From Octopus vulgaris (taxonomy: Eukaryota), in assembly GCA_951406725.2 (NCBI GenBank), contig OX597815.1, positions 77,748,001 through 77,812,000 of the forward strand: DNA of 64,000 nt. The letters run 5' to 3'. Position numbers and translations under genes: made by a program. The notes below the pieces were generated by a model. That model was given only the letters and a program-made list of their open reading frames with translations. It was not told where the DNA came from and ran no database searches. Shown here one piece after another: positions 11,780-53,230 of the stretch (within the stretch, counting starts at the first letter, position 1; the number at the start of each line of letters is the position of its first letter).

Positions 11780-12350
11780 GATTACAACACCTTCCCTTAG
11801 CAAAGAAGGAAGGCAGATCTTTCTCAGTTTAGTGGTTGTGGCTAAAGAGGCTGTGTGGTGGACCGGACCCATCTGAAAGGCTTGAAGGCAGGCACATTCT
11901 TATCTGGTCAAACCTTCATCAATATCATTTGAAGAGGAAGGGGAGGATAGAGAGAGATGTGCTGCCTTCTAGTGTGCTTATCAAAAGATAGTTGACAGTG
12001 GCAAGACTGCTGAGACTGAATAGATCTACTTTGAGTATGCTCTTCCAAGCGAGAGGAAAGAAACTGGAAGAGGACACTTTCCCATGGTTTAGAGATGGCA
12101 GAGTAATGTGGGATTTTTGTTTGAGGTTTACCCCAGATTACCTTAAGTGGGCTGCTCTGCTATTGGGCATTCTATTTATTTATTTATAATTTATTTCTCT
12201 ACTTTCTTATATATATCCTGTTATATTCTTTAATGTGATAGCATCTCTCCTTGATTGATGTTAACCACACGTTTTTGTAATTTTTTTTTGTGCTCTAACT
12301 CATCCTTCAATATTGTCCTCTATGTCTTGGGCCCTTGTGGCCAATAAAAG
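11780..12350 (+). mobile_element. 5'-truncated, decayed Tx1-clade LINE (ORF2 C-terminus plus 3' UTR)
   Basis: PSLSKEGRQIFLSLVVVAKEAVWWT..LKGLKAGTFLSG..HLKRK..TVARLLRL aligns to element A ORF2 end (NEGKFRFLVVVAIAKEVIWKTRMKG...HLKRK...DVARKLRV); ends tattgtcctctatgtcttgggcccttgtggccaataaaa like the A-D tail. Confidence 0.82.
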
Positions 12351-23773: not shown

Positions 23774-24308
23774 GAAATGAGGTAATCAGAAGATCGGATG
23801 GTTTATATTTACAGATATTTAACCAAAAAAAAATTCTTTCCTTCTTCTTCCCTCTTTCTCTTTAGCACTCGCCTCAGATACAAACACACACACTCACACA
23901 CACATACACATACACATACACACATGTTCTCTCTCTCACTTTCTCCTCATCCACCTCACCCTTTTGTACTGTCTTATTCCTCCCCACCACTATGAAACTC
24001 TATAAAATGATTAAAATTCCCCACAAAGGAATTATTTTGATTTGAAAACCCCACTAGAATGGGAGAAAGCGCTAATGATCTAAGTGATATGATATATATG
24101 TAAAAAATGTAATATATAAATAAATATCTGTAAATATAAACCATCCGATCTTCTGATTACCTCATTTCTTCTAATATATAATACCTGTACATCATCTCCA
24201 AACCTTCCAATATATATTCACATAAGGATAAGCATATTAAAAGGGGTCCGTGGGAAAATTCATTTAAATAAAAGGGGTCTTTTGTAGTGAAAAGTTTGGC
24301 AACCTCTG
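23631..24308. mobile_element. hAT MITE
   Basis: Imperfect TIRs cagtggtccccaacct / agtttggcaacctctg; perfect 8-bp TSD tgctaaag (23623-23630, 24309-24316). Confidence 0.85.
23762..24180. repeat. Perfect 60-bp inverted repeat with ~300-bp spacer (possible Penelope-type terminus)
   Basis: 23762-23821 is the exact reverse complement of 24121-24180; abuts a (TA)n tract. Confidence 0.9.
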
Positions 24309-24961
24309 TGCTAAAGGGTTAAGTCTCCTATGTAAAGACAAGAACAATCCCTCTTATGGGATTTCACATAGTTTCCATTTACCAAATTTCTCTCCCAAAG
24401 GTTTGGTGAACCTCAGGTTATGTTACCTGATACTTACCTGAATGTTTCAATATTTAAGTGATAATATACTATTCATAAAGTATCACAGGAAATGTGTAAT
24501 CAATCATCATCTTTACCATCATTATTATTGCATCCACTTTTCCATGTTCTTATGGGTCAGATGGTAATTTGTTGAGGTAGATTTACTATGGCTGGATGCC
24601 CTCCTTGTTGCCCAGCCCTCACTTGTTTTACAAGCAAGGTAATATTTCCACATGACCAGGCATATTTTCATGGAAAATTAGCAGTGAAAGTCATTGCTAG
24701 TATAATAGTAACAACTCATTTACATCTATCACTCAATATCGAGACAGAGAGAGAGAAACACACACACACACTATATCAAAGTTGATAGTCTACTCTTAGT
24801 GTCATCCTTGGATGAGCTGTTCACAACAGTGAACAATCATGAATAGCCCATCTATGTATAATACATATATACCGATCCACTCTATGCAGCATATTGAGTT
24901 CTGTATCAATAAATGTTTGCGCTACGTAAAATATATAATTGGTTTATTTTATTACTGTTAC

Positions 24962-24991
<30 letters not shown>

Positions 24992-24995
<4 letters not shown>

Positions 24996-25266
24996 TCATC
25001 CTCATCGTTTAACGTCCGTTCTCCATGCTAGCATGGGTTGGACGGTTCGACCGGGGATCTGGGAAGCCAGAAGGCTGCACCAGGCTCCAGTCTTATCTGG
25101 CAATGTTTCTACAGCTGGATGCCCTTCCTAACACCAACCACTCCGTGAGTATAGTGGGTGCTTTTTACGTGCCACCTGCACAGGTGCCAGGCGAGGCTGG
25201 CAACGGCCACGGTCGGATTGGTGTATTTTACGTGCCACCGGCACGGAAGCCAGTCGAGGCGGCGCT

Positions 25267-25270
<4 letters not shown>
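24992..25270 (-). mobile_element. Young copy of the (GAT)n-tailed SINE/LINE-tail repeat inside (TA)n
   Basis: tcatcctcatcgtttaacgtccgttctccatgctagcatgggttggacggtt...; CpGs retained; (TA)n on both sides. Confidence 0.75.
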
Positions 25271-25303
<33 letters not shown>

Positions 25304-25564
25304 ATAATTAAAGGATAAAATCATTAAGATTAATGGATTTTATCAGTGGCCAGCATATAAAAAATAACCTTTTAGGTAAAATTCATATATAGAGATATAC
25401 TAGCATTAAGACCTGTCGTTGCCGGGTCATAGTGCTAGCGCATGTATATATGTGTATATATATGTGTACATATTACATGTACATCTATATATATACATCT
25501 ACATATAAAATACAAAGTTATATCTTGATATCGCTAGTGATAACAATTCTCAAAATATATAACA

Positions 25565-25870
25565 GACTGGAATTGTTAGCCCGTCTCTTGCAATTTCGAT
25601 CAATTAAATTTTGTCCTCCCTCTTGTATAGAAGTGTGGTTACAATCCAGCCTACATCTACTTCGGGGGGCGGGGGGGCATTTAAAATTTTTATCTGGGAC
25701 GTCCTACGTCCCAGATATAAAGGTAAAAATAAAATATTTCCACTTTGCAAGTTCGAGTCGAGTACTCCCTTGCATGCTCCATTGACTTGAACCTTGCTTC
25801 TATTGTGGCGAATTTACCGCCTCTGGTGAGATATCTTTCATAGTCGCACCAAGACGCTTTTCGAAGGTGC
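25565..25870 (-). pseudogene. Decayed ORF1 of a third Tx1-like family, downstream half (insertion target)
   Basis: STFEKRLGATMKD / YLTRGGKFATIEARFKSMEHAREYS / SGNILFLPLYLGRRTSQIKILNAP aligns with B ORF1 IENCLKPIMDKITYINRGKKYGTVEVRF...IVLLPLYKGKRTSKITMNNIPPE. Confidence 0.8.
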
Positions 25871-25882
25871 TTTCCTCCAGGT
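25871..25882 (-). other. Target-site motif ACCTGGAGGAAA (3' flank of element A)
   Basis: tttcctccaggt; identical copy at 31125-31136, forming a 12-bp TSD around A. Confidence 0.9.
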
Positions 25883-26128
25883 TGTTTTATTATTACCCAC
25901 AAGGGGCGAACATAGATGGGACAATACAATCTGATGATGGGGTCAGACACACGAATGGGTTTTTACAATAAATCGAATTTAAAAATTTTCATGAATTACA
26001 ATAAATGGACAGAAATCGAATGATGGGACAGACCGGAAGACATTACGGGTGGAGTGGGTGCGGGTTTAGCTCGGACCCCACGAGCCCCGCCTCCCCACTG
26101 ATACTTTTGGTTGCGCTTGGTATTACAT

Positions 26129-29100
26129 TTATGTTGTATCTTTCACTCGCAACTTTCGTGCTACATCCTTCCATCGTTCTTCATACACTCTCCTAGTCAG
26201 GCATATTCTCTCCAGCCCTATCTTCCTTTTCAGGTGAAAGATGAAATACTTCATCAAACCAGGGCTGGAGATGAACTTGCCTGACTGTACACCTTTCATT
26301 CTCGTCTTCCATATCACCTCTTTCGCAATTGCTACTACAACGAGAAAACGAAACTTACCTTCATTCACGAGGAAATCCGGTGGGTCAATTTTTGTAATCG
26401 ACTCAGTCGACAGCTGTACTCTTCGTGTACCTGACAACAGCTGTTCGGCATAAACCCACACCTCAGACACGTCCGGACAATGAACAATAGCGTGCGGGAC
26501 GGTTTCCCTATCCCGCCCGCATCTTGGACATATCGGACTGTCTTGGCCACCGTGCCTTGCGAGTTTATCCCGAACAGGTAGAGCTCCTCTGTAGCATTGC
26601 CATGCCAGAGACTTCTGGAAGTTGTCCAGTGTCCTCGGCTTGAACGTACGTCGGAACAGACTGGCCAGCTGATTATCATCAAGACCTAGGGTTTCCCCCA
26701 AGGTATCTTCACATTCCGCCTCTACCAACCCTCTATAGAAGAATGTGGTGGAACCCCCACCGCAGGCGTTGCCCGAGCGACGGAATAGCAGGAGAGCCTT
26801 GCGACACTCCGTGTACCAAGTACCAAGTTTCGATCTACGATTCAGCCAGGTTTCCCATCCACCGAAACTAGTGAACTTGGGAAACATCAGTTTTGCTAGC
26901 GAAGACCACACCCGTTCACCATCCAGGTAGAGCCACAGATGTCTTAACCTCAGCGCATGTCTGCACATCATCAGCCAAGGCATCCCTAGCCCACCCTTTA
27001 ACGGTTGTTGACAGCAAGTAGAGCGTTTCACAAGTGGTTTCCCGCCCTTCCACAAGAAGTAGAAGAGATGTCTTTCCAACTTGATCAACCACGAATCAGG
27101 GCAAGGAACGACGGAAAGGCGGTAGGTGATAACCGATGCGATAAACACATTGGCCACCTCCGCCCTCCCTTTCAGGGATAGCCACCGCCAAGACCAGGTC
27201 TTGGCTACTGCAGCCACCTTGCTCGTTACCTCGCCCCAATTCTTCTCTATTTGGAGGTCTGGACCGAACCAGACCCCTAGCAGTTTAATCGGACCCTCCG
27301 TCCAACGTCCCACGACGCTGTCAGGAGGCATCGACTTGCCTCTCCAGGTGCCGAGTTGCAAGCCGACTGACTTTTCGCGATTAACTTTTGCTCCTGTCAC
27401 CGTCTCGTAAACCTCTATGGCCTTGCCTACTTTACATAGGTGGTCCATTTCGGTTACGATGATGGTGATGTCATCCGCGTACGCTGACACTGATTTTCCA
27501 TTACCTGGCTGTCTCGGGATGCCGCTCAGTTTTCGCAGTAATGGCTCAAGAGCCATCACGTACAAAAGCGGGGAGAGCGGACACCCTTGACGAACCGAGC
27601 GTTTGATTTTGAACGGCTTCGACAAGAAGCCGTTCACCCGAACTACCGAGTCGATGTTATCATAAATTTGGATAATCCACCTGAGGAAGCCAAGGCTCAG
27701 CCCGAACTGTGCCAGGGCAGATACCAGGTAACGATGGTCGACCCTATCAAAAGCTTTAGATTGGTCTAAATGGACCAGTGCCCCACCCTTGCCAGAATCA
27801 CTATTAAACCCCTCTATAGTGTACCGCATTAGATGGAGATTATCCTGAATGGATCTGCCCGGAACGGCACATGTCTGTGCCTCTCCGATCAGACCATCCG
27901 CGACATGCGCCAATCTTTTCGATAACACTTTGGCCAAAATCTGCAACTCTGTGTTTAGCAGAGTGATGGGCCTGAAATTATCAATGCACTCCCCCTTGCT
28001 CGGGTCCTTTCTGACGAGAGTCACTACTCCCCGGCGCACAGATCTGGGTATAAGCCCGTTCTGCTGCCAGTTCGCATAGACCTCCGCCAGTAGGTGCCCG
28101 AACAAGTCTGGCATACTCTTATATAACTCATATGGTAGACCATCCAAACCCGGCGCCTTGCCCGCGCCGCAGTCCGCCATTGCCTCAACCACCTCCTCAG
28201 GCGTGATTGGCCCTTCACAGCCCTCCGCATCTCGCCCCGATAAGCGCGGCAGACCGTCGAGTAGGTCCGTAAAGGCCCTCCTCCTATCCAGTCCGCCGCA
28301 CTCACCGAAAAGCTGAGCGAAGTGCTCCTGAAAGGCCTCACACATCTCCTCGGGTTCGTTTATCAACTCACCTTGTTGGTTCGTCAAAGATCGAATCGTG
28401 GCATCGTTACCATGCTGAGCTTCCACCACTCGGGCCCATCTCACGGCGTTGATTCCTTCACATCCCATATGGCGGATTCTAGCCCTGACAATGCAGCCCA
28501 TGTGTTTGGCCTCGAGGTGCTGGTTTAACACCAGTCTCTTGGACGCCACCTGAGCCGCAGAGCCAGTTTTCATGGCTTCCTCTAATTCCTTAACTAGAGT
28601 AGTTTCCCTTCTAGCCTCTCTAGCCACTACTCCTATGCTATATCTAATAGACTCAAACTTGATGGCTCGTTTGAGGGCGTACCACCATTTGTTATTAATG
28701 ATGGTACCAGATAGTGCCCTCTGAATTATATTCCTAATCCGGTCTTTGTACTCCTTAATCGCCAAAAGGGACGTATTAAGTTTCCAGTAACCGGATCCTC
28801 TATTTTTAACCTTATCTATGTCAAGCTTACAAGTGACCATTTTATGATCACTGTAGCTGATCGGGTAAAACTGTGGACACTTAGCTATTTTACTGTCTAC
28901 TTTTCTAATTAGTATTCTATCTAAATATGACCTGGAAGATCCGTCGCTGTTTGACCATGTCCACAATGGAGCGTTCGGAAATTCCAGCCTATAAGGATCT
29001 GCTAGCTCAAAGCGGCTTAGCAGTTCCATGAAGCCACTGTTGCCTTTTCTATCTGGACGCGAGCCAACACAATCTACATCCGCTTTGCAAATTCTGTTAA

Positions 29101-29524
29101 AGTCTCCTAGCACCACTAATGAATGCGAAGTACCAAGAAAGTTTTCTAGTTCACGAAAGTAATCACTTTGCCCTGTATGGTTGGGTGCGTAAATTGCAAC
29201 CAGTCTGATAACTTTACCATTACTGAACGTCAAATCCATGACGACCAGCCTACCTTCTGGATCTGCAAAAATTAACTTTTTCTCAGAAACCCGGTTTCTT
29301 TTTAATAGGACCAACACCCCACTCCCGCCTGTAGGACTGCCAGGAGAGAAAAAACTCTCGTAGCCGTCAAACAGCGGGAGTAGACCTCTTGGCCCCTCTA
29401 ACCGGGTTTCTGTAGCAACAATAACATCTAAATTACGCGACCTGATATCATGCAGGAAGCGACCTTGTTTCCAGCCTGCTCCCAGGCCGCACACATTCAA
29501 ACAACCAACATAAATGTAATCCAT
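26129..29524 (-). CDS. ORF2 of A: APE endonuclease, reverse transcriptase, C-terminal zinc ribbon (1131 aa, intact)
   Basis: APE motifs LNVCGL, ATET, GDFN, YLDRI, SDH; YWKLN; KAPGLDGLP; RT motifs FRPITLLN, DQSKAFDRV, RQGCPLSP, YADD, GGLG; CPRC...H...HC. Confidence 0.96.
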   Translation of the reverse strand: MDYIYVGCLNVCGLGAGWKQGRFLHDIRSRNLDVIVATETRLEGPRGLLPLFDGYESFFSPGSPTGGSGVLVLLKRNRVSEKKLIFADPEGRLVVMDLTFSNGKVIRLVAIYAPNHTGQSDYFRELENFLGTSHSLVVLGDFNRICKADVDCVGSRPDRKGNSGFMELLSRFELADPYRLEFPNAPLWTWSNSDGSSRSYLDRILIRKVDSKIAKCPQFYPISYSDHKMVTCKLDIDKVKNRGSGYWKLNTSLLAIKEYKDRIRNIIQRALSGTIINNKWWYALKRAIKFESIRYSIGVVAREARRETTLVKELEEAMKTGSAAQVASKRLVLNQHLEAKHMGCIVRARIRHMGCEGINAVRWARVVEAQHGNDATIRSLTNQQGELINEPEEMCEAFQEHFAQLFGECGGLDRRRAFTDLLDGLPRLSGRDAEGCEGPITPEEVVEAMADCGAGKAPGLDGLPYELYKSMPDLFGHLLAEVYANWQQNGLIPRSVRRGVVTLVRKDPSKGECIDNFRPITLLNTELQILAKVLSKRLAHVADGLIGEAQTCAVPGRSIQDNLHLMRYTIEGFNSDSGKGGALVHLDQSKAFDRVDHRYLVSALAQFGLSLGFLRWIIQIYDNIDSVVRVNGFLSKPFKIKRSVRQGCPLSPLLYVMALEPLLRKLSGIPRQPGNGKSVSAYADDITIIVTEMDHLCKVGKAIEVYETVTGAKVNREKSVGLQLGTWRGKSMPPDSVVGRWTEGPIKLLGVWFGPDLQIEKNWGEVTSKVAAVAKTWSWRWLSLKGRAEVANVFIASVITYRLSVVPCPDSWLIKLERHLFYFLWKGGKPLVKRSTCCQQPLKGGLGMPWLMMCRHALRLRHLWLYLDGERVWSSLAKLMFPKFTSFGGWETWLNRRSKLGTWYTECRKALLLFRRSGNACGGGSTTFFYRGLVEAECEDTLGETLGLDDNQLASLFRRTFKPRTLDNFQKSLAWQCYRGALPVRDKLARHGGQDSPICPRCGRDRETVPHAIVHCPDVSEVWVYAEQLLSGTRRVQLSTESITKIDPPDFLVNEGKFRFLVVVAIAKEVIWKTRMKGVQSGKFISSPGLMKYFIFHLKRKIGLERICLTRRVYEERWKDVARKLRVKDTT

Positions 29525-29532
29525 TACTTACC

Positions 29533-30908
29533 TTATATCAGTGGTTCGGTTTTCTCTTGTTCTTCTAACTCTTTTTCTGGGCCTCGTGGGGGAGTCTGAC
29601 GTAGGCCCTCGAATATATGTGGAGATGTCACATCCAATCTAAGTGGGCCTACGTCATGGAAGAATTCTGACTTTATCCGCCCGTAATCCTTCCGGCCTAT
29701 TCTGTAAATTACAAAGTCGTTTTTTTCACTACTTTCTCCACTTTGGCCATGGCTGCCAACTCGTTTCCGAGTCTGCTATTTGCTGCCTTTACGGCCATAT
29801 ACGAGTTCATTGACTCTTTTTTCTTTTTTAAAATTACTCTGGGAGGGGTGGTTTCCGTTTTTCTTTTTTTTTTTTCCGGTAATTTTTGCCCACCCCTCCT
29901 CATTTATCTTTTCCTCGCTCTTTTTTTCCTCCGCCGCTGGTTCTGCTGTCACCGTCACCTCCACACCTTCAGTCTTCCCTTCTGGGCCGTCCGACGCTGC
30001 TTCTGGTGACACATTATCTCTTCTTTTTCTTTTGGCTTAGGTGCTTCCTGCGGTTTGGGTTGGGGTTGGCATTCCGCCCTTACATGACCCTTCTTGCCGC
30101 AGCCGAAGCACCTCGGCTTCCTGCCCTCCACGAAAACTGTTATTTTCTCGTCTTCACTAATCTTTACCGTTTCTGGAATTTCTTCCAGTGTTTGCACCTC
30201 CGCCTGAATGGCTATCACTATTTTCTGCCCTTTCCAAAACTCCTCTTCCTCCACTGTGGCCTGGAGGATGTTTATTTTTTCCTCCAGACCTACCATCACT
30301 GCTGCCACCAGACATTCAGCATCTGCCTCTGGCGGTATGTTGTTCATTGAAATTTTCGACGTCCTTTTTCTTTTATACAATGGTAGTAAGACAATGTTTT
30401 CCGCTTTGATCGGCTCCATTGATAGTTTCTTCGCTATCTCCTCCGTAGTAAAACGCACCTCCACTGTGCCGTATCTTTTTCCTCTGTTTATATACGTTAT
30501 TTTATCCATAAAAGGTTTTAGACAAAACTCTATTTTTTTTTCTTCGATTTTTTGATCATTTTGTCGTTGTGTCGTAAGTTTTATATATTATTCTTTTTTT
30601 TCTATATCGTCATGTTTTTGTATGTTTGTGGCCACAGTCACTTCTGTGCCTTCTTTTTTACACAGTCTGCAAATTTTCCAAAATTTTCTATATTTATTTT
30701 TTTGATCTTTTTCCCAGCCACTTCAGCGAATTTTTTTGCTGGAGTTGATGCTGGTACTGGTTTTTCCATTTTCTTGGGCGACGCCGCCTCTTTTTTCTTC
30801 GGCGACAACGCCTCTTTTTCTTGGCGACAACGCCTCTTTTTTTCTTGGCGACAACGCCGGGTATTCATCCTCGCTCGTCACGGGCGAATAAGAGATGGGG
30901 GACTCCAT
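29533..30908 (-). pseudogene. ORF1 of A (RRM-like region plus CCHC knuckle), broken by several 1-bp frameshifts, possibly assembly errors
   Basis: MESPISYSP start; RGKRYGTVEVRF; CFGCGKKGHVRAEC; ends KTEPLI*; colinear with B ORF1. Confidence 0.88.
30770..30858 (-). repeat. ~24-bp coding tandem repeat (about 4 units, SP[KR]KKEA[LA])
   Basis: Repeated ttttcttggcgacaacgcctc; two units at the equivalent site in B (~36003-36048). Confidence 0.85.
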
Positions 30909-31398
30909 CTTGAACAAATGGCTTTAACAAGCCTTTGGTAAATCCAAATTAATTGTAGTTTTCCCCCACGGAGGGGGGAACACCAACGCGAAGTCTTCGC
31001 GCGAAGGCTGACTTCGTCAGTTAGACAACAATAGACAAAACAGGTAGACCAACAGTATATAATAACAGAGATAATAGTACGAGAGCAAAAATATATCAAC
31101 TTACTAATAAACGCAAAAAATTGATTTCCTCCAGGTTGTTTTATTACTACCCACAAGGGGCGAACATAGAGGGGACAAAACAATCTGATTTGGGGTCAGA
31201 CATACGGATGGTTTTTACACAAAATCGGATTTAAAAATATCATGAAATTACAAAAATACACACAAAATCGAATGATGGAATAGACCGGAAGACATTACAG
31301 ATGGAGTGGGTGCGGGTTCAGCTCGGACCCCACGAGCCCCGCCTCCCCACTGATACTTTTGGTTGCACTTGGTATTACATTTATGTTGTGACTTTCAT

Positions 31399-34300
31399 TC
31401 ACAACTTTCGTGCTACATCCTTCCATCGTTCTTCATACACTCTCCTAGTCAGGCATATTCTCTCCAGCCCTATCTTCCTTTTCAGGTGAAAGATGAAGTA
31501 ATTCATCAAACCAGGGCCGGAGATGAACTTGCCTGACTGTAAACCTTTCATTCTCGTCTTCCATATCACTTCTTTCGCAATTGCTACTACAACGAGAAAA
31601 CGAAACTTACCTTCATTCACGAGGAAATCCGGTGGGTCAATTTTTGTAATCGACTCAGTCGACAGCTGTACTCTTCGTGTACCTGACAACAGGCTGTTCG
31701 GCATAAACCCACACCTCAGACACGTCCGGACAATGAACAATAGCGTGCGGGACGGTTTCCCTATCCCGCCCGCATCTTGGACATATCGGACTGTCTTGGC
31801 CACCGTGCCTTGCGAGTTTATCCCGAACAGGTAGAGCTCCTCTGTAGCATTGCCATGCCAGAGACTTCTGGAAGTTGTCCAGTGTCCTCGGCTTGAACGT
31901 ACGTCAGAACAGACTGGCCAGCTGATTATCGTCGAGACCCAGGGTTTCCCCCAAGGTATCTTCACATTCCGCCTCTACCAACCCTCTATAGAAGAATGTG
32001 GTGGAACCCCCACCGCAGGCGTTGCCCGAGCGACGGAATAGCAGGAGAGCCTTGCGACACTCCGTGTACCAAGTACCAAGTTTCGATCTACGATTCAGCC
32101 AGGTTTCCCATCCACCGAAACTAGTGAACTTGGAAAACATCAGTTTTGCTAGCGAAGACCACACCCGTTCACCATCCAGGTAGAGCCACAGATGTCTTAA
32201 CCTCAGCGCATGTCTGCGCATCATCAGCCAAGGCATCCCTAGCCCACCCTTTAACGGTTGTTGACAGCAAGTAGAGCGTTTCACAAGTGGTTTCCCGCCC
32301 TTCCACAAGAAGTAGAAGAGATGTCTTTCCAACTTGATCAACCACGAATCAGGGCAAGGAACGACAGAAAGGCGGTAGGTGATAACCGATGCGATAAACA
32401 CATTGGCCACCTCCGCCCTCCCTTTCAGGGATAGCCACCGCCAAGACCAGGTCTTGGCTACTGCAGCCACCTTGCTCGTTACCTCGCCCCAATTCTTCTC
32501 TATTTGGAGGTCTGGACCGAACCAGACCCCTAGCAGTTTAATCGGACCCTCCGTCCAACGTCCCACGACGCTGTCAGGAGGCATCGACTTGCCTCTCCAG
32601 GTGCCGAGTTGCAAGCCGACTGACTTTTCGCGATTAACTTTTGCTCCTGTCACCGTCTCGTAAACCTCTATGGCCTTGCCTACTTTACATAGGTGGTCCA
32701 TTTCGGTTACGATGATGGTGATGTCATCCGCGTACGCTGACACTGATTTTCCGTTACCTGGCTGTCTCGGGATGCCGCTCAGTTTTCGCAGTAATGGCTC
32801 AAGAGCCATCACGTACAAAAGCGGGGAGAGCGGACACCCTTGACGAACCGAGCGTTTGATTTTGAACGGCTTCGACAAGAAGCCGTTCACCCGAACTACC
32901 GAGTCGATGTTATCATAAATTTGGATAATCCACCTGAGGAAGCCAAGGCTCAGCCCGAACTGTGCCAGGGCAGATACCAGGTAACGATGGTCGACCCTAT
33001 CAAAAGCTTTAGATTGGTCTAAATGGACCAGTGCCCCACCCTTGCCAGAATCACTATTAAACCCCTCTATAGTGTACCGCATTAGATGGAGATTATCCTG
33101 AATGGATCTGCCCGGAACGGCACATGTCTGTGCCTCTCCGATCAGACCATCCGCGACACGCGCCAATCTTTTCGATAACACTTTGGCCAAAATCTTCAAC
33201 TCTGTGTTTAGCAGAGTGATGGGCCTGAAATTATCAATGCACTCCCCCTTGCTCGGGTCCTTTCTGACGAGAGTCACTACTCCCCGGCGCACAGACCTGG
33301 GTATAAGCCTGTTCTGCTGCCAGTTCGCGTAGACCTCCGCCAGTAGGTGCCCGAACAAGTCTGGCATACTCTTATATAACTCATAGGGTAGACCATCCAA
33401 ACGCGGCGCCTTGCCCGCGCCGCAGTCCGCCATTGCCTCAACCACCTCCTCAGGCGTGATTGGCCCTTCACAGCCCCCCGCATCTCGCCCCGATAAGCGC
33501 GGCAGCCGTCGAGTAGGTCCGTAAAGGCCCTCCTCCTATCCAGTCCGCCGCACTCACCGAAAAGCTGAGCGAAGTGCTCCTGAAAGGCCTCACACATCTC
33601 CTCGGGTTCGTTTATCAACTCACCTTGTTGGTTCGTCAAGATCGAATCGTGGCATCGTTACCATGCTGAGCTTCCACCACTCGGGCCCATCTCACGGCGT
33701 TGATTCCTTCACATCCCATATGGCGGATTCTAGCCCTGACAATGCAGCCCATGTGTTTGGCCTCGAGGTGCTGGTTTAACACCAGTCTCTTGGACGCCAC
33801 CTGAGCCGCAGAGCCAGTTTTCATGGCTTCCTCTAATTCCTTAACTAGAGTAGTTTCCCTTCTAGCCTCTCTAGCCACTACTCCTATGCTATATCTAATA
33901 GACTCAAACTTGATGGCTCGTTTGAGGGCGTACCACCATTTGTTATTAATGATGGTACCAGATAGTGCCCTCTGAATTATATTCCTAATCCGGTCTTTGT
34001 ACTCCTTAATCGCCAAAAGGGACGTATTAAGTTTCCAGTAACCGGATCCTCTATTTTTAACCTTATCTATGTCAAGCTTACAAGTGACCATTTTATGATC
34101 ACTGTAGCTGATCGGGTAAAACTGTGGACACTTAGCTATTTTACTGTCTACTTTTCTAATTAGTATTCTATCTAAATATGACCTGGAAGATCCGTCGCTG
34201 TTTGACCATGTCCACAATGGAGCGTTCGGAAATTCCAGCCTATAAGGATCTGCTAGCTCAAAGCGGCTTAGCAGTTCCATGAAGCCACTGTTGCCTTTTC

Positions 34301-34775
34301 TATCTGGACGCGAGCCAACACAATCTACATCCGCTTTGCAAATTCTGTTAAAGTCTCCTAGCACCACTAATGAATGCGAAGTACCAAGAAAGTTTTCTAG
34401 TTCACGAAAATAATCACTTTGCCCTGTATTGTTGGGTGCGTAAATTGCAACCAGTCTGATAACTTTACCATTACTGAACGTCAAATCCATGACGACCAGC
34501 CTACCTTCTGGATCTGCAAAAATTAACTTTTTCTCAGAAACCCGGTTTCTTTTTAATAGGACCAACACCCCACTCCCGCCTGTAGGACTGCCAGGAGAGA
34601 AAAAACTCTCGTAGCCGTCAAACAGCGGGAGTAGACCTCTTGGCCCCTCTAACCGGGTTTCTGTAGCAACAATAACATCTAAATTACGCGACCTGATATC
34701 ATGCAGGAAGCGACCTTGCTTCCAGCCTGCTCCCAGGCCGCGCACATTCAAACAACCAACATAAATGTAATCCAT
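31399..34775 (-). pseudogene. ORF2 of B (APE-RT), nearly identical to A ORF2 with a few single-base indels
   Basis: Track pieces 33636-34775, 33277-33639, 31904-33445, 31399-31965 reassemble to the A ORF2; indels near 33640, 33505, 31905, 31692. Confidence 0.92.
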
Positions 34776-34784
34776 TACTTACCT

Positions 34785-36098
34785 TTATATCAGTGGTTCG
34801 GTTTTTTCTTCTTCTTCCTTCTCTTTTTCTGGGCCTCGTGGGGGAGTCTGACGCAGGCCCTCGAATATATATGGAGATGTTATATCCATTCTGAGCGGGC
34901 CTACGTCATGGAAAAATTCGGACTTTATCCGTCCGTAATCCTTCCGGCCTATTCTGTACAATACATAGTCGTTTTTCCTCCCTATTTTTTCTACTTTGGC
35001 CATCGCTGCCAACACATTTCCGAGTCTATTGTTCGTGGCCTTAACGGCCATAAATGAGTTCAATGACTCCCTTTTTTTTTTGGTTTACTTTGGGAGGGGT
35101 GGTTTCAGTTTTTCTTTTTTTCCTAGTGATTTTTGACCACCCCTCCTCCTTTTTCGTTTCCTCGCTCTTTTTTTCCTCCTCCGTTGGTTCCGCTGCCTCT
35201 GTTACCTCCACACCTTCAGTCGTCCCTCCTGGGCCGACCAGCGCTGTTTCTGATGACGCGGCTTCTGCTTTTCCACTTGGCTGAGCTGCTTCCTGCGGTT
35301 TGGGTTGGGGCTGGCATTCTGCCCTTACATGCCCTTTCTTACCGCAGCCGAAGCACCTCGGCTTTCTGCCCTCTACGAAGACTGTGACTCTTTCATCTTC
35401 GCTTATCTTTAGAGTCTCTGGGATCTCTTCCAGGGTTTGTACTTCTGCTTGTATGGCTATTATTATCTTTTGCCCTTTCCAGAATTCTTCTTCTTCTACG
35501 GTGGCCTGGAGGATGTTTATTTTTTCCTCCAGGCCTACCATAACTGCTGCCACCAGACTTCGGCATCCGCTTCTGGCGGAATGTTATTCATTGTGATCTT
35601 GGAAGTTCTCTTGCCTTTATACAGGGGTAGGAGAACAATATCCTCCGCTTTTATGGGTTCCATGGATAGCTTCTTCGCTACCTCCTCTGACGTGAATCTC
35701 ACCTCCACTGTGCCGTATTTCTTCCCTCGATTGATATATGTGATTTTATCCATTATCGGCTTTAAGCAGTTTTCGATTTTTTTCTCCTCTATTTTTTGTA
35801 TTGCTCTGCTTGTTATACTGAATGTCTTATAGATTATTCTCCTATTTGAAATTTCCTCCTGTTTTTGGGCGTTTGAAGCCACGGTTACTTCCGTGCCCTC
35901 TTTTGACACACAGTCCGCATGTTTTCCCAGGTTTTCCACATTAATTTTTTTAATTTTCTTCCCAGCTACTTCCGAAAATTTTCTCGCTGGTGCTGGAATA
36001 TCTTTTTTCTTTGGCGACCCCGCCTCTTTTTTCTTTGGCGACACCGCCGGTGATCCTGCATCACTTGTCACAGGAGAATACAAGATGGGGGATTCCAT
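34785..36098 (-). pseudogene. ORF1 of B (CCHC knuckle), two frameshifts
   Basis: Track pieces 35535-36098, 35041-35553, 34785-35063; CFGCGKKGHVRAEC. Confidence 0.9.
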
Positions 36099-36320
36099 CT
36101 CCGATAACTGGCTTTAACAAGCCCTTGGCACAACCAAGATAATGATAGTTTTTTCCCCCACGGAGGGGGGAAACACCAACACGAAGCCCTCGCACGAAGG
36201 CCGACTTCAATAGTTTTACAACAACACAGAAAGACAGCTAGACACACAGTAGATCACAATGGAGAAAATATACACAATATAATAACTTACTATACACGCA
36301 AAAATTGATTTCAGACAGGT

Positions 36321-38093
36321 GATTTTATTACTACCCACAAGGGGCGAACATAGAGGGGACAATACAATCGGGGAACTTAAAATAAGAAAGCGAATGACAA
36401 GAAAAGGAAAAAATAAAAGTAAAAAATGACATATGAAAGAATATTTACAATGAGATGTAAATGCCCACTCGATCCCCGGAATCGAGAGGTTACATTTTCG
36501 TCACATATATTTCACAAATTTTCTTTTTTCTCTTCTTTCTTCTCTCTCTTCTCACAATTCTATACATATTCCATAATAGCTTTCAATTCTCTAAAGTCTA
36601 TCACTGAGCCCTCAGGCAGCCGCTCTCTCACTCGAACACTCGTGTAAAATATTACACTCTCTCCGGCAGCTCTGAGGAACTCAGCGACTCTTTCTTCGGG
36701 GATTAGAGCAGTCTCCTGCCACTGATCGGTCATCCTGTTGACCCATATATGTCCCTCCGTATTACATGTCAAGTCTTTCATTACAGGGCAGAAATGGAAG
36801 GTTACTAACTTGTAGAAGCAGTAATCTTGTTTCCGTCCGACGTTTTCCTTCATTTTTCTTTTCGGGCTTATTTCTTCCTTGTTCTCCTCTCTTTGTTTCT
36901 CTCTTTCTCTCTTTTTGCCTTCTTTTCTTTCTCCTTCCTTCTCTTGTCTTTTTGGTTCTTTGTCTGTTCTCTCTTTCTCTCGTGTTTTATGTTCCTTTTC
37001 TTTTTCCTTTTGTGTGCCGTCTTTTCTTTTCGTTTGATTCTGATCTCTCTCTTGTTTTTTTCCTGTTGTTTCTTTTTCCTTTTTTTTTTCCTGACTCTGT
37101 TTTGGTTCTATTTCTTTCTTTTCTTTTATTTCTTTTTCCTTCATTGACTTATTATTTCCTTTCTCTTGTTGTTTTGTTTCCTTTTCTATGTTTTCTTTTT
37201 CATTTACCGTATTCTTCTTTTCTTCAAGTTCCTGCTCGCACTCCGCTACGAATTCGTATAACGGGCACTCTTTTTTAATGTGCCCCCTTGTCCCGCACAG
37301 GTAACAGTTTGGTTTTCTTCCCTCTACAATTACACTGAGGGTTTTTTCGTCTTCAATTTCTATTCTGTAGGGGAACCTTTCAATGTCCTCTTTTGTGGCC
37401 ATCAAACACAGTTCTACCCCATATCCTCTCCAGTTTACCGCGTTGGACTCCTTAAAGGATTCCACCTCCACTTCCTCTTCTGCTGCTCCTAGAATAGCTG
37501 TTGCCAGCCATTCTGTTTTCACTTCTGGGGGTATATTCGGGATTTTAACCCGGACCCCTCTTCTTCCCTTGTATGAGGGCCACATTGTAAATTTTTCCGC
37601 TCTTAGTACGGTGGTAGCCAGTGAGGCTGCAATTTCTTCCGTTGCACATCTCACCTCCACCGTACCAAATTTCTTGCCTCTACTCACGTAGGTTGATTTC
37701 CCCATTATGTCTCCCAGACATTTTTCAATTTCGGCTATCTCCACTCTTGCCAGTTTCTTCGTATTTTTGTCTTGGGTTCTATATGTCACTGTCTTGCTTT
37801 CTTTGTCCTCTTTTGCTTTCGCGGGGGGGGGGGGATTAGCTTCACGCTATCACCCTCCCTTTTGAAAAGCTTTTCATATTCTTTGAGTTTATCCTTCTCA
37901 AAGAAAACATCCTTCACGATTATCGACGAATCATTATTTTTTCCCGTGACCCCCGCGTAAGTCGCCATGACTAGAGGGTCAATTCACCTTCTTCGGAAGG
38001 TTTCTACACGTGGAGGCAAACGCCTCGCGCGATATTAATCAATTTACACGGAAACAATTTCAACGTCTAGTCACAGATAACAACACGCATAGA
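36321..38093 (-). mobile_element. Element C: ORF1-only non-autonomous retrotransposon (half-Tx1, HAL1/HeT-A-like architecture), ~1.77 kb
   Basis: Own 5' UTR, single ORF1, ~240-nt 3' UTR, no APE/RT; last ~45 nt match A/B; 12-bp TSD tttcagacaggt (36309-36320, 38094-38105). Confidence 0.9.
36560..37968 (-). CDS. ORF1-like protein of C: RRM-like region, CCHC knuckle, K/E-rich linker, distinct C-terminal domain (409 codons open; N-terminal ~47 codons out of frame at a C-run)
   Basis: YVSRGKKFGTVEVRC, NIPPEV, VIVEGRKPNCYLCGTRGHIKKEC are homologous to A/B ORF1; ATG at 37968. Confidence 0.88.
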
Positions 38094-38105
38094 TTTCAGA
38101 CAGGT

Positions 38106-39873
38106 GATTTTATTACTACCCACAAGGGGCGAACATAGATGGGACAATACAATCGGGGAACTTAAAATAAGAAAGCGAATGACAAGAAAAGGAAAAAATA
38201 AAAGTAAAAAATGACATATGAAAGAATATTTACAATGAGATGTAAATGCCCACTCGATCCCCGGAATCGAGAGGTTACATTTTCGTCACATATATTTCAC
38301 AAATTTTCTTTTTTTTCTTCTTTCTTCTTCTCTCTCTTCTCACAATTCTATACATATTCCATAATAGCTTTCAATTCTCTAAAGTCCATCACTGAGCCCT
38401 CAGGCAGCCGCTCTCTCACTCGAACACTCGTGTAAAATATTACACTCTCCCCGGCAGCTCTGAGGAACTCAGCGACTCTTTCTTCGGGGATTAGAGCAGT
38501 CTCCTGCCACTGATCGGTCATCCTGTTGACCCATATATGTCCCTCCGTATTACATGTCAAGTCTTTCATTTCAGGGCAGAAATGGAAGGTTACTAACTTG
38601 TAGAAGCAGTAATCTTGTTTCCGTCCTACGTTTTCCTTCATTTTTCTTTTCGGGCTTATTTCTTCCTTGTTCTCCTCTCTTTGTTTCTCTCTTTCTCTCT
38701 TTTTGCCTTCTTTTCTTTCTCCTTCCTTCTCTTGTCTTTTTGGTTCTTTGTCTGTTCTCTCTTTCTCTCGTGTTTTATGTTCCTTTTCTTTTTCTTTTTG
38801 TGTGCCGTCTTTTCTTTTCGTTTGATTCTGATCTCTCTCTTGTTTTTTTCCTGTTGTTTCTTTTTCCTTTTTTTTTCCTGACTCTGTTTTGGTTCTATTT
38901 CTTTCTTTTCTTTTATTTCTTTTTCCTTCATTGACTTATTATTTCCTTTCTCTTGTTGTTTTGTTTCCTTATCTATGTTTTCTTTTTCATTTACCGTATT
39001 CTTCTTTTCTTCAAGTTCCTGCTCGCACTCCGCTACGAATTCATATAACGGGCACTCTTTTTTAATGTGCCCCCTTGTCCCACACAAGTAACAGTTTGGT
39101 TTTCTTCCCTCTACAATTACACTGAGGGTTTTTTCATCTTCAATTTCAATTCTGTAGGGGAACCTTTCAATGTCCTCTTTTGTGGCCATCAAACACAGTT
39201 CTACCCCATATCCTCTCCAGTTTACGCGTTGGACTCCTTAAAGGATTCCACCTCCACTTCCTCTTCTGCTGCTCCTAGAATAGCTGTTGCCAGCCATTCT
39301 GTTTTCACTTCTGGGGGTATATTCGGGATTTTAACCCGGACCCCTCTTCTTCCCTTGTATGAGGGCCACATTGTAAATTTTTCGGCTCTTAGTACGGTGG
39401 TAGCCAGTGAGGCTGCAATTTCTTCTGTTGCACATCTCACCTCCACCGTACCAAATTTCTTGCCTCTACTCACGTAGGTTGATTTCCCCATTATGTCTCC
39501 CAGACATTTTTCAATTTCGGCTATCTCCACTCTTGCCAGTTTCTTCGTATTTTTGTCTTGGGTTCTATATGTCACTGTCTTGCTTTCTTTGTCCTCTTTT
39601 GCTTTCGCGGGGGGATTAGCTTCACGCTATCACCCTCCCTTTTGAAGAGCTTTTCATATTCTTTGAGTTTATCCTTCTCAAAGAAAACATCCTTTATGAT
39701 TATCGATGAATCATTATTTTTCCCGGTGACCCCCGCGTAAGTCGCCATGACTAGAGGGTCAATTCACCTTCTTCGGAAGGTTTCCACACGTGGAGGCAAA
39801 CGCCTCGCGCGATATTAATCAATTTACACGGAAACAATTTCAACGTCTAGTCACAGATAACAACACGCATAGA
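38106..39873 (-). mobile_element. Element D: second ORF1-only element, highly similar but not identical to C
   Basis: Colinear with C end to end with scattered substitutions; flanked by tttcagacaggt (38094-38105, 39874-39885). Confidence 0.9.
38348..39748 (-). pseudogene. ORF1-like gene of D with 1-bp frameshifts
   Basis: Track pieces 39222-39575, 38656-39192, 38348-38641 match the C protein. Confidence 0.85.
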
Positions 39874-39885
39874 TTTCAGACAGGT

Positions 39886-39950
39886 GCTCAAATCTTCTTT
39901 TTTCTTTACATTGTATACTTTATAGACAATAGTCTTTTCTTTAATTTGAT
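39886..39950 (-). pseudogene. Upstream half of the decayed ORF1 split by the array
   Basis: IKEKTIVYKVYNVKKK..EH joins LEESTFEKRL at 25882; aligns with B ORF1 NRRIIYKTFSITSRAIQKIEEKKIENCL. Confidence 0.72.
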
Positions 39951-40446
39951 TTTTTATTATCCATCTGGACTATTCCATTTCTGCACACTAATTTTATTTT
40001 TAATTTATTCCCATTCATGTGAAACCACTTATTCAAGTTCAAGTCATTGATGCAATTTTATACCAATTGCTATTTTTACTTTTGTTATGTTACAATTACA
40101 TTATACTTTAGTTTGATTTTAATTATTACTTACTACATATAATTCAATTGTTATTATTATCTCTAATTTTTATTGTTAAAGTGAAAGTATCTGATATAAA
40201 ATAGAGAAATGTTTTTGTTTCACTTTTAACACGTAATACTGAAATAGTGGAAAAGATATGATATTGCTATGGGCTCGCTCTAGGCAAGAAGTTGAACATT
40301 TTTTTTGCCCATGAAACTACATGGACCCTAAGTAAGGCATGTGTAAAATTTGAATGAAATTGGTTGTGTAGTTCTCAAGTTTTAGGGAAACACACAGACA
40401 GACAGACACACACACATTCTCAGTTTTATATATAGAGAGATAGATA

Positions 40447-41430
40447 TAGATAATTGTATAGAATACAATTATAATTAAGGGCACAGAAGCTACTGTAGTG
40501 AACTCCAGTAAACTTCCTCTTTCTAGTATATATACATACACACGAACGTAGCAGGTAACAGTTAACCTTTAGGTGCTGTTTTGGACCCTGTTGCCATTAT
40601 AGATGGATAGTTGTATTCCATCTAATGTGACTCTACTCAGAAGGCTGTAATATCATTTGACAAGAACACGGTATAAAGAAATACATGGAACAAGGTGGTG
40701 ACTTTAAATGTCTTTAATGTGGGCCTCACATACATACATATATATACAAGCTGAATGATAAATGGAAGTGGTTGATGGACATTTATTCATATATCTACAT
40801 GCATCTATGTGGGTTGTATGTTAGCTGTTAATCTTGGTGAGGAAGCTCATGAACAGTGATATGTTAGAACCTGTGCAGTGTGTTGGTGCTGTGTGGAGAT
40901 GTTGTTGATGACATTGGTGAGAGACATAATGGTGGCAATGTAATGTTGTCAGTGGTTAGACCTTAGAAGGTCTGGAACCAACAGACTCCAAGACTAGGAA
41001 GAGGTGAGTTTTTATAGCTAACAGTAAGCTCAAATGTAGTTTAGAACAGACTGCCTCACGTGATTCATTTGGAGGCTGCGATTGGTTGGGTTGTATATTG
41101 GTATGGATAGAGTAAGAGAGAAATTGCGCCAGTACTAACCTATCAGTGTGGTAGACACAACGGAGTCCAAAACACTACCCAAAGGTTACCTGTTACTTAC
41201 TACGTTCGTATGTATGTATATATAATAGAGAGAGGAAGTTCACTAGAGTTCATTATATTATAGAAGAATAGTGTGGTCTTCCATCTATACTACCATGCCT
41301 ATATGCTTTTCAGCCTGTGTATTTTTGAAGTGAAACATATAGTGGCTGGATGTATTTGGCATCTACTTCTAGCATATAGGCATGGTAGTTTCTGTGCCCT
41401 TAATTTAATTTTATTCTATGCAATTATCTC
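40447..41430. repeat. Diverged long inverted repeat (fold-back; possibly Penelope-derived)
   Basis: 40498-40595 pairs with 41157-41253; 40447-40493 pairs with 41385-41430. Confidence 0.8.
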
Positions 41431-41466
41431 TCTCTTTCTCTCTCTTCCTCTCTTTCTTTCTCTCTC

Positions 41467-41516
<50 letters not shown>

Positions 41517-41742
41517 ATAATAAAGGGTAAAATTAATTAATTAATTAATAATTAATAATTTTACCAAGTAGTTCGGTATGTTAAAGAACCATTATCGGTA
41601 ACCTTGTACAAAAATTCTATAATTATAAGCATAATATTAATTAGGGTTCAGCAAATTCCTTCACCACATACCGAAATTTAGAAATAGCAGTCAAATACTA
41701 TTCCTCTACCATAAGATATCTCCCAGACAGCTTATAATTAAA

Positions 41743-41785
<43 letters not shown>

Positions 41786-42001
41786 ATTTCTTTCACTTTC
41801 CATTTGTGAAGCCCATTCAAAAAGCTTTGGTCCTCTTGGGGCTATTGTAGAAGACACTTGCCCAAAGTGCCACTCAGTAAGGACTAAACTTGAGACTATG
41901 GTGGTTAGGACACCGACTTCTCAACCACACAGCCATGACTTAGGAGCCAAAAATTGCATCCAAAATTAAAACCATAGCATGCTTTATATATGTGAATATA
42001 T

Positions 42002-51544: not shown

Positions 51545-53230
51545 ATTGATAAATGTACCAAGGCCACTTTCCAGAAAGGGAAATTGAAGACTTCACATTC
51601 AGTGGTGTTAGATGTTGACGTGGTCACAAAAGAACTTGAGCAGGAACAAACTTGCAAATACTTTGGAATAAATGAGGGCTCTGGCATTTAGCATGCAAGT
51701 GTGAAAGAGAAGATCAGGAAGGAATGTTATAGGAGAGTTCGAGCAGTCCTAAAATCCGAGTTAAATGCATGTAACAAGGTTTTAGCTATAAGTTCCTTAG
51801 CAATTCAGGTTGTTATTTACAGTTTCAATGTGTTAAACTGGAATATGAGTGAAATAAGGAAGATTGACAGGAAAATCCATAAGCTGCTGACTTGCAATAA
51901 GATGCACCACCCAAAGGTAGATGCAGATTGTCTTTATCTACCCAGAGCTCAAGGAGGTTGAGACTTGATGCAGTTTGAAATCTCCTGCAAAGCCACCACA
52001 ACTGGACTGGCAAAATATCTTGAAACATCTAACAACTGGATGCTAAAGCTTGTTGAAAACTTTGAAAAATGTAAGCAGTTTCGTTCTGTTATGAAGGAGA
52101 GCAAAAAGTTTGCAAGTGAGTTTATGCATAATACCCACATTGAACAGCATGATAGAAGTGCAGCAACTGTAGTTGCAAAGGTGAAATCAATTGCAAAGCA
52201 AAATGCATTTGGAAAGTTGGCTAATAGGTGAGAACAAAAACCTCTGTATGACAAATATGTGGCCCATAGCAAACAAGCTGATGTAAACTAGAAGCACACC
52301 CATCAGTGGCTGCAGAGCTCAGAGCTAAAGGCAGAGAGTGAAGGCTTTATCTTGGTTGCCCAAGATCAGAGCTTATTGACCTGGAACTATCAAGCCAATG
52401 TGATGAAAAATGGCATAGACCCAAACTGCTGATACTGCAATGATGGGATTGAAACAGTGGACCAACTGATCTGAGTGTAAGGTTTTAGCACCTGTAGAGT
52501 ACAAATCAAGACATGACAGAATTGGCCAATATCTACAGTGGATAATGTGTCAGCATTATAAAATCAAAACTACTGACAAAAGGTACAAGCACCACCTTGT
52601 GGCTGTAACTGAGGGAGAAAATGTAACTATTCTTTGGGACTTCCCAGTATGTACAGACCAGACCATCAAAGCAAATAAACCAAATGTTGTTGTGAAAGAC
52701 CAAAACAATAACGTCTCTTTATTGATTGACATGAGCATACTCTGTGACTATAATATCTCAGCAAAAGAATTTGCTAAGCTCAGAAAATATAAAAATTTAC
52801 CAATCAAAATCGAAAAGATGTGGCATTTCAAGACGGATACAGTACCAGTGATTGTAGGAGCACTTGGAATGATCAAAAAAGGAACTGAAAATTATTTAAG
52901 ATTGATCTCTTGCTTACCATCCTTGCAGGAAGTGCAAAAGATTGTCTTAACTGGTACATCATGCATATTGAGAAGAGCATTGTCGCTATGAATTTTCTTC
53001 CCTCCCCTCTTTATTTTCTTTGTTTACTTTTTTATTTTTTATTGTTTCCTTTTTCTCTCTGTCTTTTGTTCCCTTTTTCTCTATCACATGACTTTGTAAA
53101 TGAACAATCTGGTGTATTTATTTTAATGGCCTACCAATGTATACAGTACATTTCTCTGCCCTAGGTGTCAAGAAGACCTTTGGCAAGAAATGGAAACAGA
53201 ATTGAAAGAAGAGGCTAATGAAAATAATTT
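51545..53230 (+). mobile_element. 5'-truncated, decayed R4/Dong-like LINE (RT thumb, zinc finger, restriction-like endonuclease; coding to 52991)
   Basis: KYFGINE..KEKIRKECYRRVRAVLKSELNA..HHPKVDADCLYLPRAQGG; ESEGFILVAQDQSL; C..C...ETVDQL; RHD; TILWDFPVCTD...ANKPNVVVKD...LLIDMS; VPVIVGALG; several stops. Confidence 0.87.

Follow-up and report, generated by a model that had tools for sequence, protein, structure and literature searches.

An ORF1-only retroelement family in Octopus vulgaris with a divergent, selectively maintained ORF1 and a 3' tail in common with its putative Tx1-like helpers

Introduction

How can a retroelement that has only the first of the two open reading frames, or ORFs, found in its neighbours keep that frame in coding condition, and which enzyme copies it? 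The question is raised by a stretch of 64,000 nucleotides from Octopus vulgaris (assembly GCA_951406725.2, contig OX597815.1, positions 77,748,001 to 77,812,000; the whole stretch is called the window below), in which four elements that lack long terminal repeats (non-LTR elements), A to D, form an array. A preliminary description, made from the letters alone, had taken the two short elements, C and D, for an ORF1-only family with an ORF1 of its own, mobilised in trans by the ORF2 of the long elements A and B. Our analysis supports this outline in part, and we propose that C and D probably live in the manner of mammalian HAL1, in that their own ORF1 protein (ORF1p) would serve their own RNA while an ORF2 protein (ORF2p) of the A/B type is borrowed.

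Results

C and D are complete 1.77-kb elements with an ORF1 and no trace of an ORF2, as had been claimed. An ORF2 profile built from 55 full-length sequences gave no match in any of the 12 frames of the two copies; the same profile recovered the broken ORF2 of B as four pieces, and none of 120 listed ORF2 relatives (of 728) matched C or D by tblastn. Both copies pass from ORF1 to the 3' untranslated region (UTR) at the same junction, where no ORF2 remnant is found, and both start at the identical first base, which represents a 5' end of their own. Self-comparison of the window revealed two long repeat pairs, A with B (25868-31185 versus 31122-36369, 92%) and C with D (36304-38106 versus 38089-39886, 98%; 98.1% identity over 1806 aligned bases). 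On the minus strand the four elements follow one another head-to-tail as D-C-B-A, with C and D upstream of B and A, and every element terminates with AATAAAA(T). The array is bounded by ordinary flanks on both sides and is interstitial.

The candidate partner is of the L1-group type as judged from its sequence, with an apurinic/apyrimidinic endonuclease (APE), a reverse transcriptase (RT) and a C-terminal zinc motif (Pfam Exo_endo_phos, RVT_1 and zf-RVT). The best solved relative of the A ORF2 is human L1 ORF2p (E 1e-63), and R2 also matched (1e-25). A and B are likely members of the Tx1 clade, an assignment made from their ORF1, which is of type I, and from an apparent preference for a target sequence rather than from an RT phylogeny with Tx1 references. 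Names are attached to only 2 of the 120 ORF2 relatives among the matches listed, and neither of the two is a classified element.

The ORF1s of C and D differ by 14 synonymous changes (272 sites) and 5 nonsynonymous changes (1113 sites), leaving aside three gapped codons and the codons of a poly-C run. This corresponds to a ratio of nonsynonymous to synonymous differences per site (pN/pS) of 0.087 (binomial p 5e-7), in line with the purifying selection that had been suspected from several synonymous differences. The differences are scattered over all four regions of ORF1, with synonymous and nonsynonymous counts of 4/2 in the N terminus, 7/0 in the core of two RNA recognition motifs (RRMs) and a CCHC knuckle, 2/1 in the linker and 1/2 in the C-terminal domain. 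Purifying selection has therefore maintained the coding capacity of the C/D ORF1, both frames of which are broken as assembled. The UTRs of the two copies differ at 3 of 363 sites and by one 3-nt indel.

In both copies the frame is broken at a poly-C run, with an offset of the same amount in each; D has two further single-base gaps. The Octopus bimaculoides homolog P0007 continues across this point in a single frame and the synonymous bias is present on either side of it, so that we regard the two parts as one gene. The simplest cause of the break is an assembly error, because the ORF1 of B is also frame-split in this assembly and yet its two parts agree with an in-frame public protein from O. 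sinensis in 66 of 66 residues and in 138 of 140 (98.6-100% identity).

C and D were not expected to be simple deletions of A or B, and the comparison bears this out. The core of the C ORF1 is 38-40% identical to those of A and B and 53% identical to P0007, and clear likeness at the DNA level is confined to the 47 nt of the 3' end and one 61-nt patch in ORF1 (74%); a 53-nt patch (E 0.05) and short A-rich chance matches make up the rest. An origin of C and D by deletion of A or B is ruled out on these grounds. Apart from the terminal 47 nt, the 3' UTR of C and D is unlike that of A and B, in agreement with the earlier remark that the UTRs differ except at the extreme end. A profile search over 1.84 billion representatives gave 1130 matches, from which the best 150 were taken. 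A 54-row tree was made from 51 of 173 proteins covering 72% of the core profile, together with A, B and C; its root serves for drawing only. In this tree C grouped with P0007 and three unnamed proteins (93/90), while A and B fell in a separate clade of 10 rows (100/97). The core sequences thus place the C ORF1 on a different branch from the A/B ORF1.

The named relatives are octopod proteins, and those of C come from O. vulgaris. Nineteen distinct O. vulgaris proteins contain the C-terminal domain of C with 84-98% identity; they are encoded on seven chromosome-size sequences and one scaffold, and several have consecutive accessions. C-type elements therefore form a dispersed family in this species, as known from protein records whose flanks are unseen, and the gene models suggest tandem runs of C-type copies. 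Twenty of the 24 listed sequencing runs, which stem from 10 studies and three coded organisms, contain 0.52-0.64 of the sampled words of C; one of them may be the source of the assembly, and no RNA run is among the listed runs that share these words. A scan of metagenomes for ORF1 patterns confirmed none of 113 candidates, and the 3' tail had no match in viral, metagenome or prokaryote collections. As a separate observation, an 89-aa ORF (P0012) occurs on many O. vulgaris chromosomes and is spliced by gene models onto a downstream C-type ORF1 (proteins P0012, P0020, P0014, P0023, P0024, P0002 and P0008). It may represent the end of a different family that occurs in mixed arrays; the window lacks it, and it does not resemble the C-terminal domain significantly.

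The motifs named earlier in the C ORF1 (RGKKFGTVEVR, NIPPE and VEGRKP-CCHC) are present. An AlphaFold model of C ORF1p, made from a 105-row alignment, predicts two beta-alpha-beta-beta-alpha-beta domains with high confidence, followed by the knuckle, then by a long helix and a disordered K/E linker, and lastly by a C-terminal domain with the same topology as the first two. The best matches of the predicted RRM pair are IMP3 RRM12 with Foldseek (E 1.4e-5) and the La protein with VIA (Z 8.8, root-mean-square deviation (rmsd) 2.9, 83 aligned). In Pfam, zf-CCHC is the sole family in C, and Transposase_22 was found in none of 105 relatives. On the basis of this model, C ORF1p would be an RNA-binding protein of type I (RRM and zf-CCHC), a type that has been described for Tx1-like elements (PMC5203782). 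A feature-level likeness of 0.86-0.87 to the RNA-binding domains of ZCCHC3 is a lead only.

The C-terminal region of C had looked different from that of A and B, but the idea of a captured host domain or other foreign domain was rejected in favour of stepwise homology to the domain of B. Starting from C, its domain reached P0107 with 11.8 bits (0/1000 shuffles), P0107 reached P0044, P0054 and P0139 with 16.4 bits (0/1000 shuffles), and P0044 and P0054 reached the group of B with 13.4 and 9.0 bits (0/300 and 1/300 shuffles). The B domain itself (34839-35075) reached 21 bits against a profile made from relatives with B left out (0/300 shuffles), and its model has the same order of elements as that of C; since the model of C had four distant rows in this region, the agreement in fold is only partly independent. 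Direct comparison of the C domain with profiles of the B group was not significant (hhalign probability below 3% in 5/5 pairs), and with a profile built without C, 197 of 300 shuffles did equally well against the domain of C. By these sequence links, which are transitive only, the two domains are remote homologs. The ESM Atlas gave no usable match for the C-terminal domain, and the B domain resembled ferredoxin-like folds, a common arrangement, with Z up to 6.0, rmsd 2.8-3.3 and 62-67 aligned positions. The C-terminal domain is the most variable part of the protein in the C family, typically at 11 of 87 residues; by comparison, the core varies at 0 of 49 (p 0.007) and the linker at 8 of 131 (p 0.14). 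This domain, which has no Pfam family, was also seen across named octopod relatives and unnamed records.

All five junctions of the array contain ACCTGnnnGAAA, which occurs seven times in the window against 0.8 expected; none of 100 shuffles reached seven, for a pattern that was itself derived from the junctions. The evidence for the motif comes from one locus with two distinct words, X and Y, at 5/5 junctions. X stands on either side of both C and D as direct repeats, and after C and after D it is preceded by a T that gives a 14-mer like Y; this T is missing upstream of D. Target-sequence preference is common in the Tx1 clade. The whole D-C-B-A array splits a decayed ORF1 that belongs to the same clade and lies on the same strand, and the two halves of this ORF1 are collinear. 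Positions 41-57 of the profile are weak in this relic (E 0.4), yet they are 50% identical to P0099 by tblastn. Because the halves are collinear, the array occupies one insertion site with its own word Y, and X was imported, either at the 5' end of B or in a D-C-B block from another array; a large deletion or a join of two loci as the cause of the X/Y mismatch was rejected for the same reason. The Y downstream of A is probably the original target, since it reads in frame as part of the relic. The motif is lacking at the matching position in the ORF1s of A, B and C. It is possible that the ORF1s of relatives are targeted, one locus being insufficient for a preference.

A and B have a mosaic structure. 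Between their ORF2s the identity is 99% (synonymous difference per site, pS, 0.017), whereas between their 5' halves it is about 80%, with a pS of 0.74 and a pN/pS of 0.058 in the ORF1 core; the switch lies near 29900-29600. Module exchange, gene conversion within the array or consensus collapse could have caused this pattern.

The coordinates of the features are collected in Table 1. The predicted folding of the 3' ends does not surpass that of shuffles (z 0.07 to -0.91), and the 5' UTRs gave z of -1.7 and -1.6. A search of Rfam over 24000-42000 gave 10 matches, every one far under the gathering score, which argues against an RNA-gene target. Further observations in the window concern 24-bp tandem repeats in the N-terminal part of the ORF1 of A (30769-30858, 3.8 copies) and of B (36001-36048, 2.0 copies), a weak plus-strand match to the C terminus of ORF2 at 11781-12030 (E 0.007), and an open frame of 173 aa at 52470-52991 that by eye resembles the end of another retroelement protein.

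Table 1. Features of the array and its flanks (window coordinates; pLDDT, predicted local distance difference test)
Feature	Position	Strand	Details
Element D, second ORF1-only copy	38107..39873	-	1767 bp; ORF1 39748-38348, three frame breaks
Element C, ORF1-only non-LTR element	36322..38093	-	1772 bp; 5' UTR 125 nt, 3' UTR ~238 nt; terminates with AATAAAAT
Element B, candidate helper family	31139..36308	-	5170 bp; ORF1 and ORF2, both frame-broken in the present assembly
Element A, candidate helper	25885..31124	-	5240 bp; ORF2 open
C ORF1, ATG to stop	36560..37968	-	out of frame at the poly-C run; start ATG 37968 (D: 39748)
Poly-C run, frame change in C ORF1	37823..37834	-	12 C; equivalent D break 6 C at 39609-39614
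Two predicted RRM-fold domains	37334..37792	-	model residues 19-92 and 95-171; block pLDDT 90-97
CCHC zinc knuckle	37262..37309	-	Pfam PF00098, 22.6 bits versus cut-off 20.8
C-terminal domain	36566..36820	-	predicted beta-alpha-beta-beta-alpha-beta; block pLDDT 65-86; putative remote homolog of the B ORF1 C-terminal domain
3' end common to A, B, C and D	C: 36323..36369	-	47 nt, 96-98% identical
A ORF2	29515-26129	-	1128 aa, open; endonuclease, RT and zf-RVT domains with catalytic motifs
Junction word X (CACCTGTCTGAAA), upstream of D	39874..39886	-	precedes D
Junction word X, D/C	38094..38106	-	precedes C
Junction word X, C/B	36309..36321	-	precedes B
Junction word Y (CAACCTGGAGGAAA), B/A	31125..31138	-	follows B
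Junction word Y, downstream of A	25871..25884	-	in frame with the ORF1 relic
ORF1 relic, upstream half	39887..39945	-	positions 18-36 of the profile (E 0.0014; 6 frames tested)
ORF1 relic, downstream half, host of array	25580..25884	-	profile positions 58-93 (E 1e-10) and 84-139 (E 4e-16)

Discussion

The shared 3' end, the shared junction motif and the direct repeats make it likely that C and D are mobilised in trans by an ORF2 of the A/B type. The RNA of C would be produced by RNA polymerase II and then translated, and the ORF1p would package that same RNA in cis. An A/B-type ORF2p might recognise the common 47-nt tail, nick ACCTGnnnGAAA and copy the RNA of C by target-primed insertion. The duplication of 13-14 bp would renew the target, so that tandem arrays could grow. 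The lineage may have originated by loss of ORF2 in a sister lineage, with a tail acceptable to the A/B ORF2p being either captured or retained. Among selfish copies, selection works on proteins from which their own RNA benefits, and for this reason we favour the use of ORF1p in cis. This reasoning has also been applied to HAL1, which is taken to need ORF1p in cis and ORF2p in trans (PMC3627910).

Several observations weigh against this reading, an alternative to which is an autonomous element with a C-type ORF1, of which C and D would be recent deletion or recombination products with an inherited signal of selection. Only two C-type copies have been seen as DNA, and the protein records are silent on what follows the stop codon. 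Among the 120 matches listed of 728 ORF2 relatives there is no close ORF2 from O. vulgaris, which suggests that ORF2 is unannotated there, and the consecutive accessions are compatible with an ORF2 between copies. The branch that unites C and P0007 falls under the 95 bootstrap mark, and the backbone of the tree is unresolved. Neither C nor D has an open ORF1 as assembled, and the N-terminal segment is included in none of 21 C-like public protein records; judged from these records, a real poly-C frame break shared in the C family is possible. The synonymous sites of C and D (14/272) are more diverged than the UTRs (3/363; Fisher p 0.001), which is compatible with constrained UTRs and also with ORF1s from differing donors.

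The main reason why such an autonomous element stays in play is the mosaicism of A and B, the near-identical ORF2s of which under unlike 5' halves indicate that ORF1 modules were swapped or ORF2 was homogenised. Given that 5' halves were exchanged on one ORF2, a C-type ORF1 on an A/B-type ORF2 is plausible. On the other side, C and D have the same junction between ORF1 and 3' UTR with no remnant of ORF2, their differences are spread over the whole of ORF1, and their 3' UTR differs from that of A and B save for the tail. In addition, blastp found a piece of ORF2 in 0 of 179 ORF1-related proteins, a weak test since ORF1 and ORF2 are separate frames. Taken together, we consider this alternative unlikely.

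The preliminary description had also suggested that the C ORF1 might be a helper or a competitor for A and B. C ORF1p would in that case act in trans on A/B ribonucleoproteins, as HeT-A Gag does for TART or in competition with their own protein, and selection would preserve that role. The common array and the common domain plan of C/D and A/B are in agreement with such a function, and a review considers it likely that the proteins of ORF1-present non-autonomous long interspersed nuclear elements (LINEs) form multimers with their counterparts from autonomous partners (PMC5786205). However, we obtained no result in its support. Each of A and B has an ORF1 of its own that is under purifying selection, there is no sign of a host role at this interstitial site, and a product that acts only in trans should give the copy that makes it no advantage and decay unless the host benefits. 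Use in cis would be simpler for a multi-copy selfish element, and a trans role appears very unlikely to us.

C and D might instead have spread mainly as passengers in read-through D-C-B multimer RNAs copied in cis by the ORF2 of B, or via DNA recombination between arrays. The flanks are one continuous relic with word Y, yet X stands before D, C and B and so was imported; moreover, the pattern of T before X fits a D-C-B block from a donor array, and the O. vulgaris gene models point to tandem runs. Nevertheless, X on either side of C and of D suggests that each was once inserted singly with a duplication, T may be just the end of C and D with X arriving at the 5' end of B, and each copy has its own AATAAA. 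Since passenger status alone would leave the selection on ORF1 unexplained, we regard this route as highly improbable. That the short elements or the array are an artefact of collapsed or mis-joined repeats is scarcely credible: the many single-base frame breaks, such as that of the B ORF1, and an ORF2 identity between A and B that could reflect consensus collapse would suit it, but errors would not yield 14 synonymous against 5 nonsynonymous changes, O. vulgaris records contain the same stop-terminated protein, and the flanks are collinear halves of one relic.

The HAL1-like reading can be extended, although in this wider form it is doubtful. One ORF2 with its 3' tail might serve several exchangeable ORF1 modules in a self-targeting, Tx1-like octopod system that inserts into related ORF1s. 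C and D would then be an old ORF1-only lineage predating the split of O. vulgaris and O. bimaculoides, with a tail captured from an unrelated helper, a C-terminal domain under diversifying pressure and, maybe, a one-base slip at poly-C for full-length ORF1p.

An ORF1-only lifestyle has already been described in mammals and flies, and it recurs, so that the surprise is limited. We found no report of an ORF1-only Tx1 family in the literature searched; this one may be contained in Repbase or Dfam, in subscription journals or in the PMC13282606 repeat library. That 2026 annotation of O. vulgaris counts 13 recently active L1-Tx1 families with 421 insertions, and the terms 'non-autonomous' and 'ORF' are absent from its main text. 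The locus, where helper and parasite are both young and lie side by side, offers a natural test of whether an ORF1p serves its own RNA only, and of whether an ORF2p can use a foreign ORF1p (38% identity) once the 47-nt tail is shared.

Among known systems, HAL1 is the nearest in lifestyle. Like C and D, it is non-autonomous, encodes ORF1p only, has kept its coding capacity, is taken to borrow ORF2p in trans and belongs to the L1 group in the wide sense (PMC5753468, PMC3627910, PMC5786205); it arose several times in mammals (PMC5753468). The parallel drawn earlier thus stands, and yet C and D are not HAL1 in the strict sense. Their ORF1 is of type I (RRM and CCHC), in contrast to the Transposase_22 (type II) protein of HAL1; their host is a mollusc, whereas HAL1 derives from mammalian L1; they insert with a specific motif and form tandem arrays; and their ORF1 comes from another branch than that of the presumed helper, with the 47-nt tail as the sole common part.

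HeT-A of Drosophila, the second parallel that had been drawn, and Ag-Sponge of Anopheles are likewise ORF1-present non-autonomous LINEs (PMC5786205), and HeT-A also forms head-to-tail arrays with autonomous partners. They derive from the Jockey and CR1 clades, however, whereas the partner ORF2 of C and D is of the L1 group, and HeT-A forms chromosome ends, unlike the C/D array, which is interstitial, lies inside an old ORF1 and has no evident host function. In crocodilians, Tx1-Mar and the dependent non-autonomous SINEU-3 share a target inside another mobile element, and their tandem insertions sandwich a target duplication (PMC4494074), as we observed here. SINEU-3 is non-coding, derived from small nuclear RNA and targets Mariner, while C and D encode an ORF1, and a relic ORF1 from the same clade forms the only site that was seen. 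Compared with the type I ORF1p of Tx1-like elements (PMC5203782), C has the two predicted RRM folds followed by a CCHC knuckle and adds a fast-changing C-terminal domain with a predicted beta-alpha-beta-beta-alpha-beta order and no Pfam match. A 2018 paper lists three clades, Jockey, L1 and CR1, in which non-autonomous LINEs with an ORF1 occur (PMC5786205). If A and B are Tx1 elements, C and D would represent a fourth clade and a target-specific case of this lifestyle.

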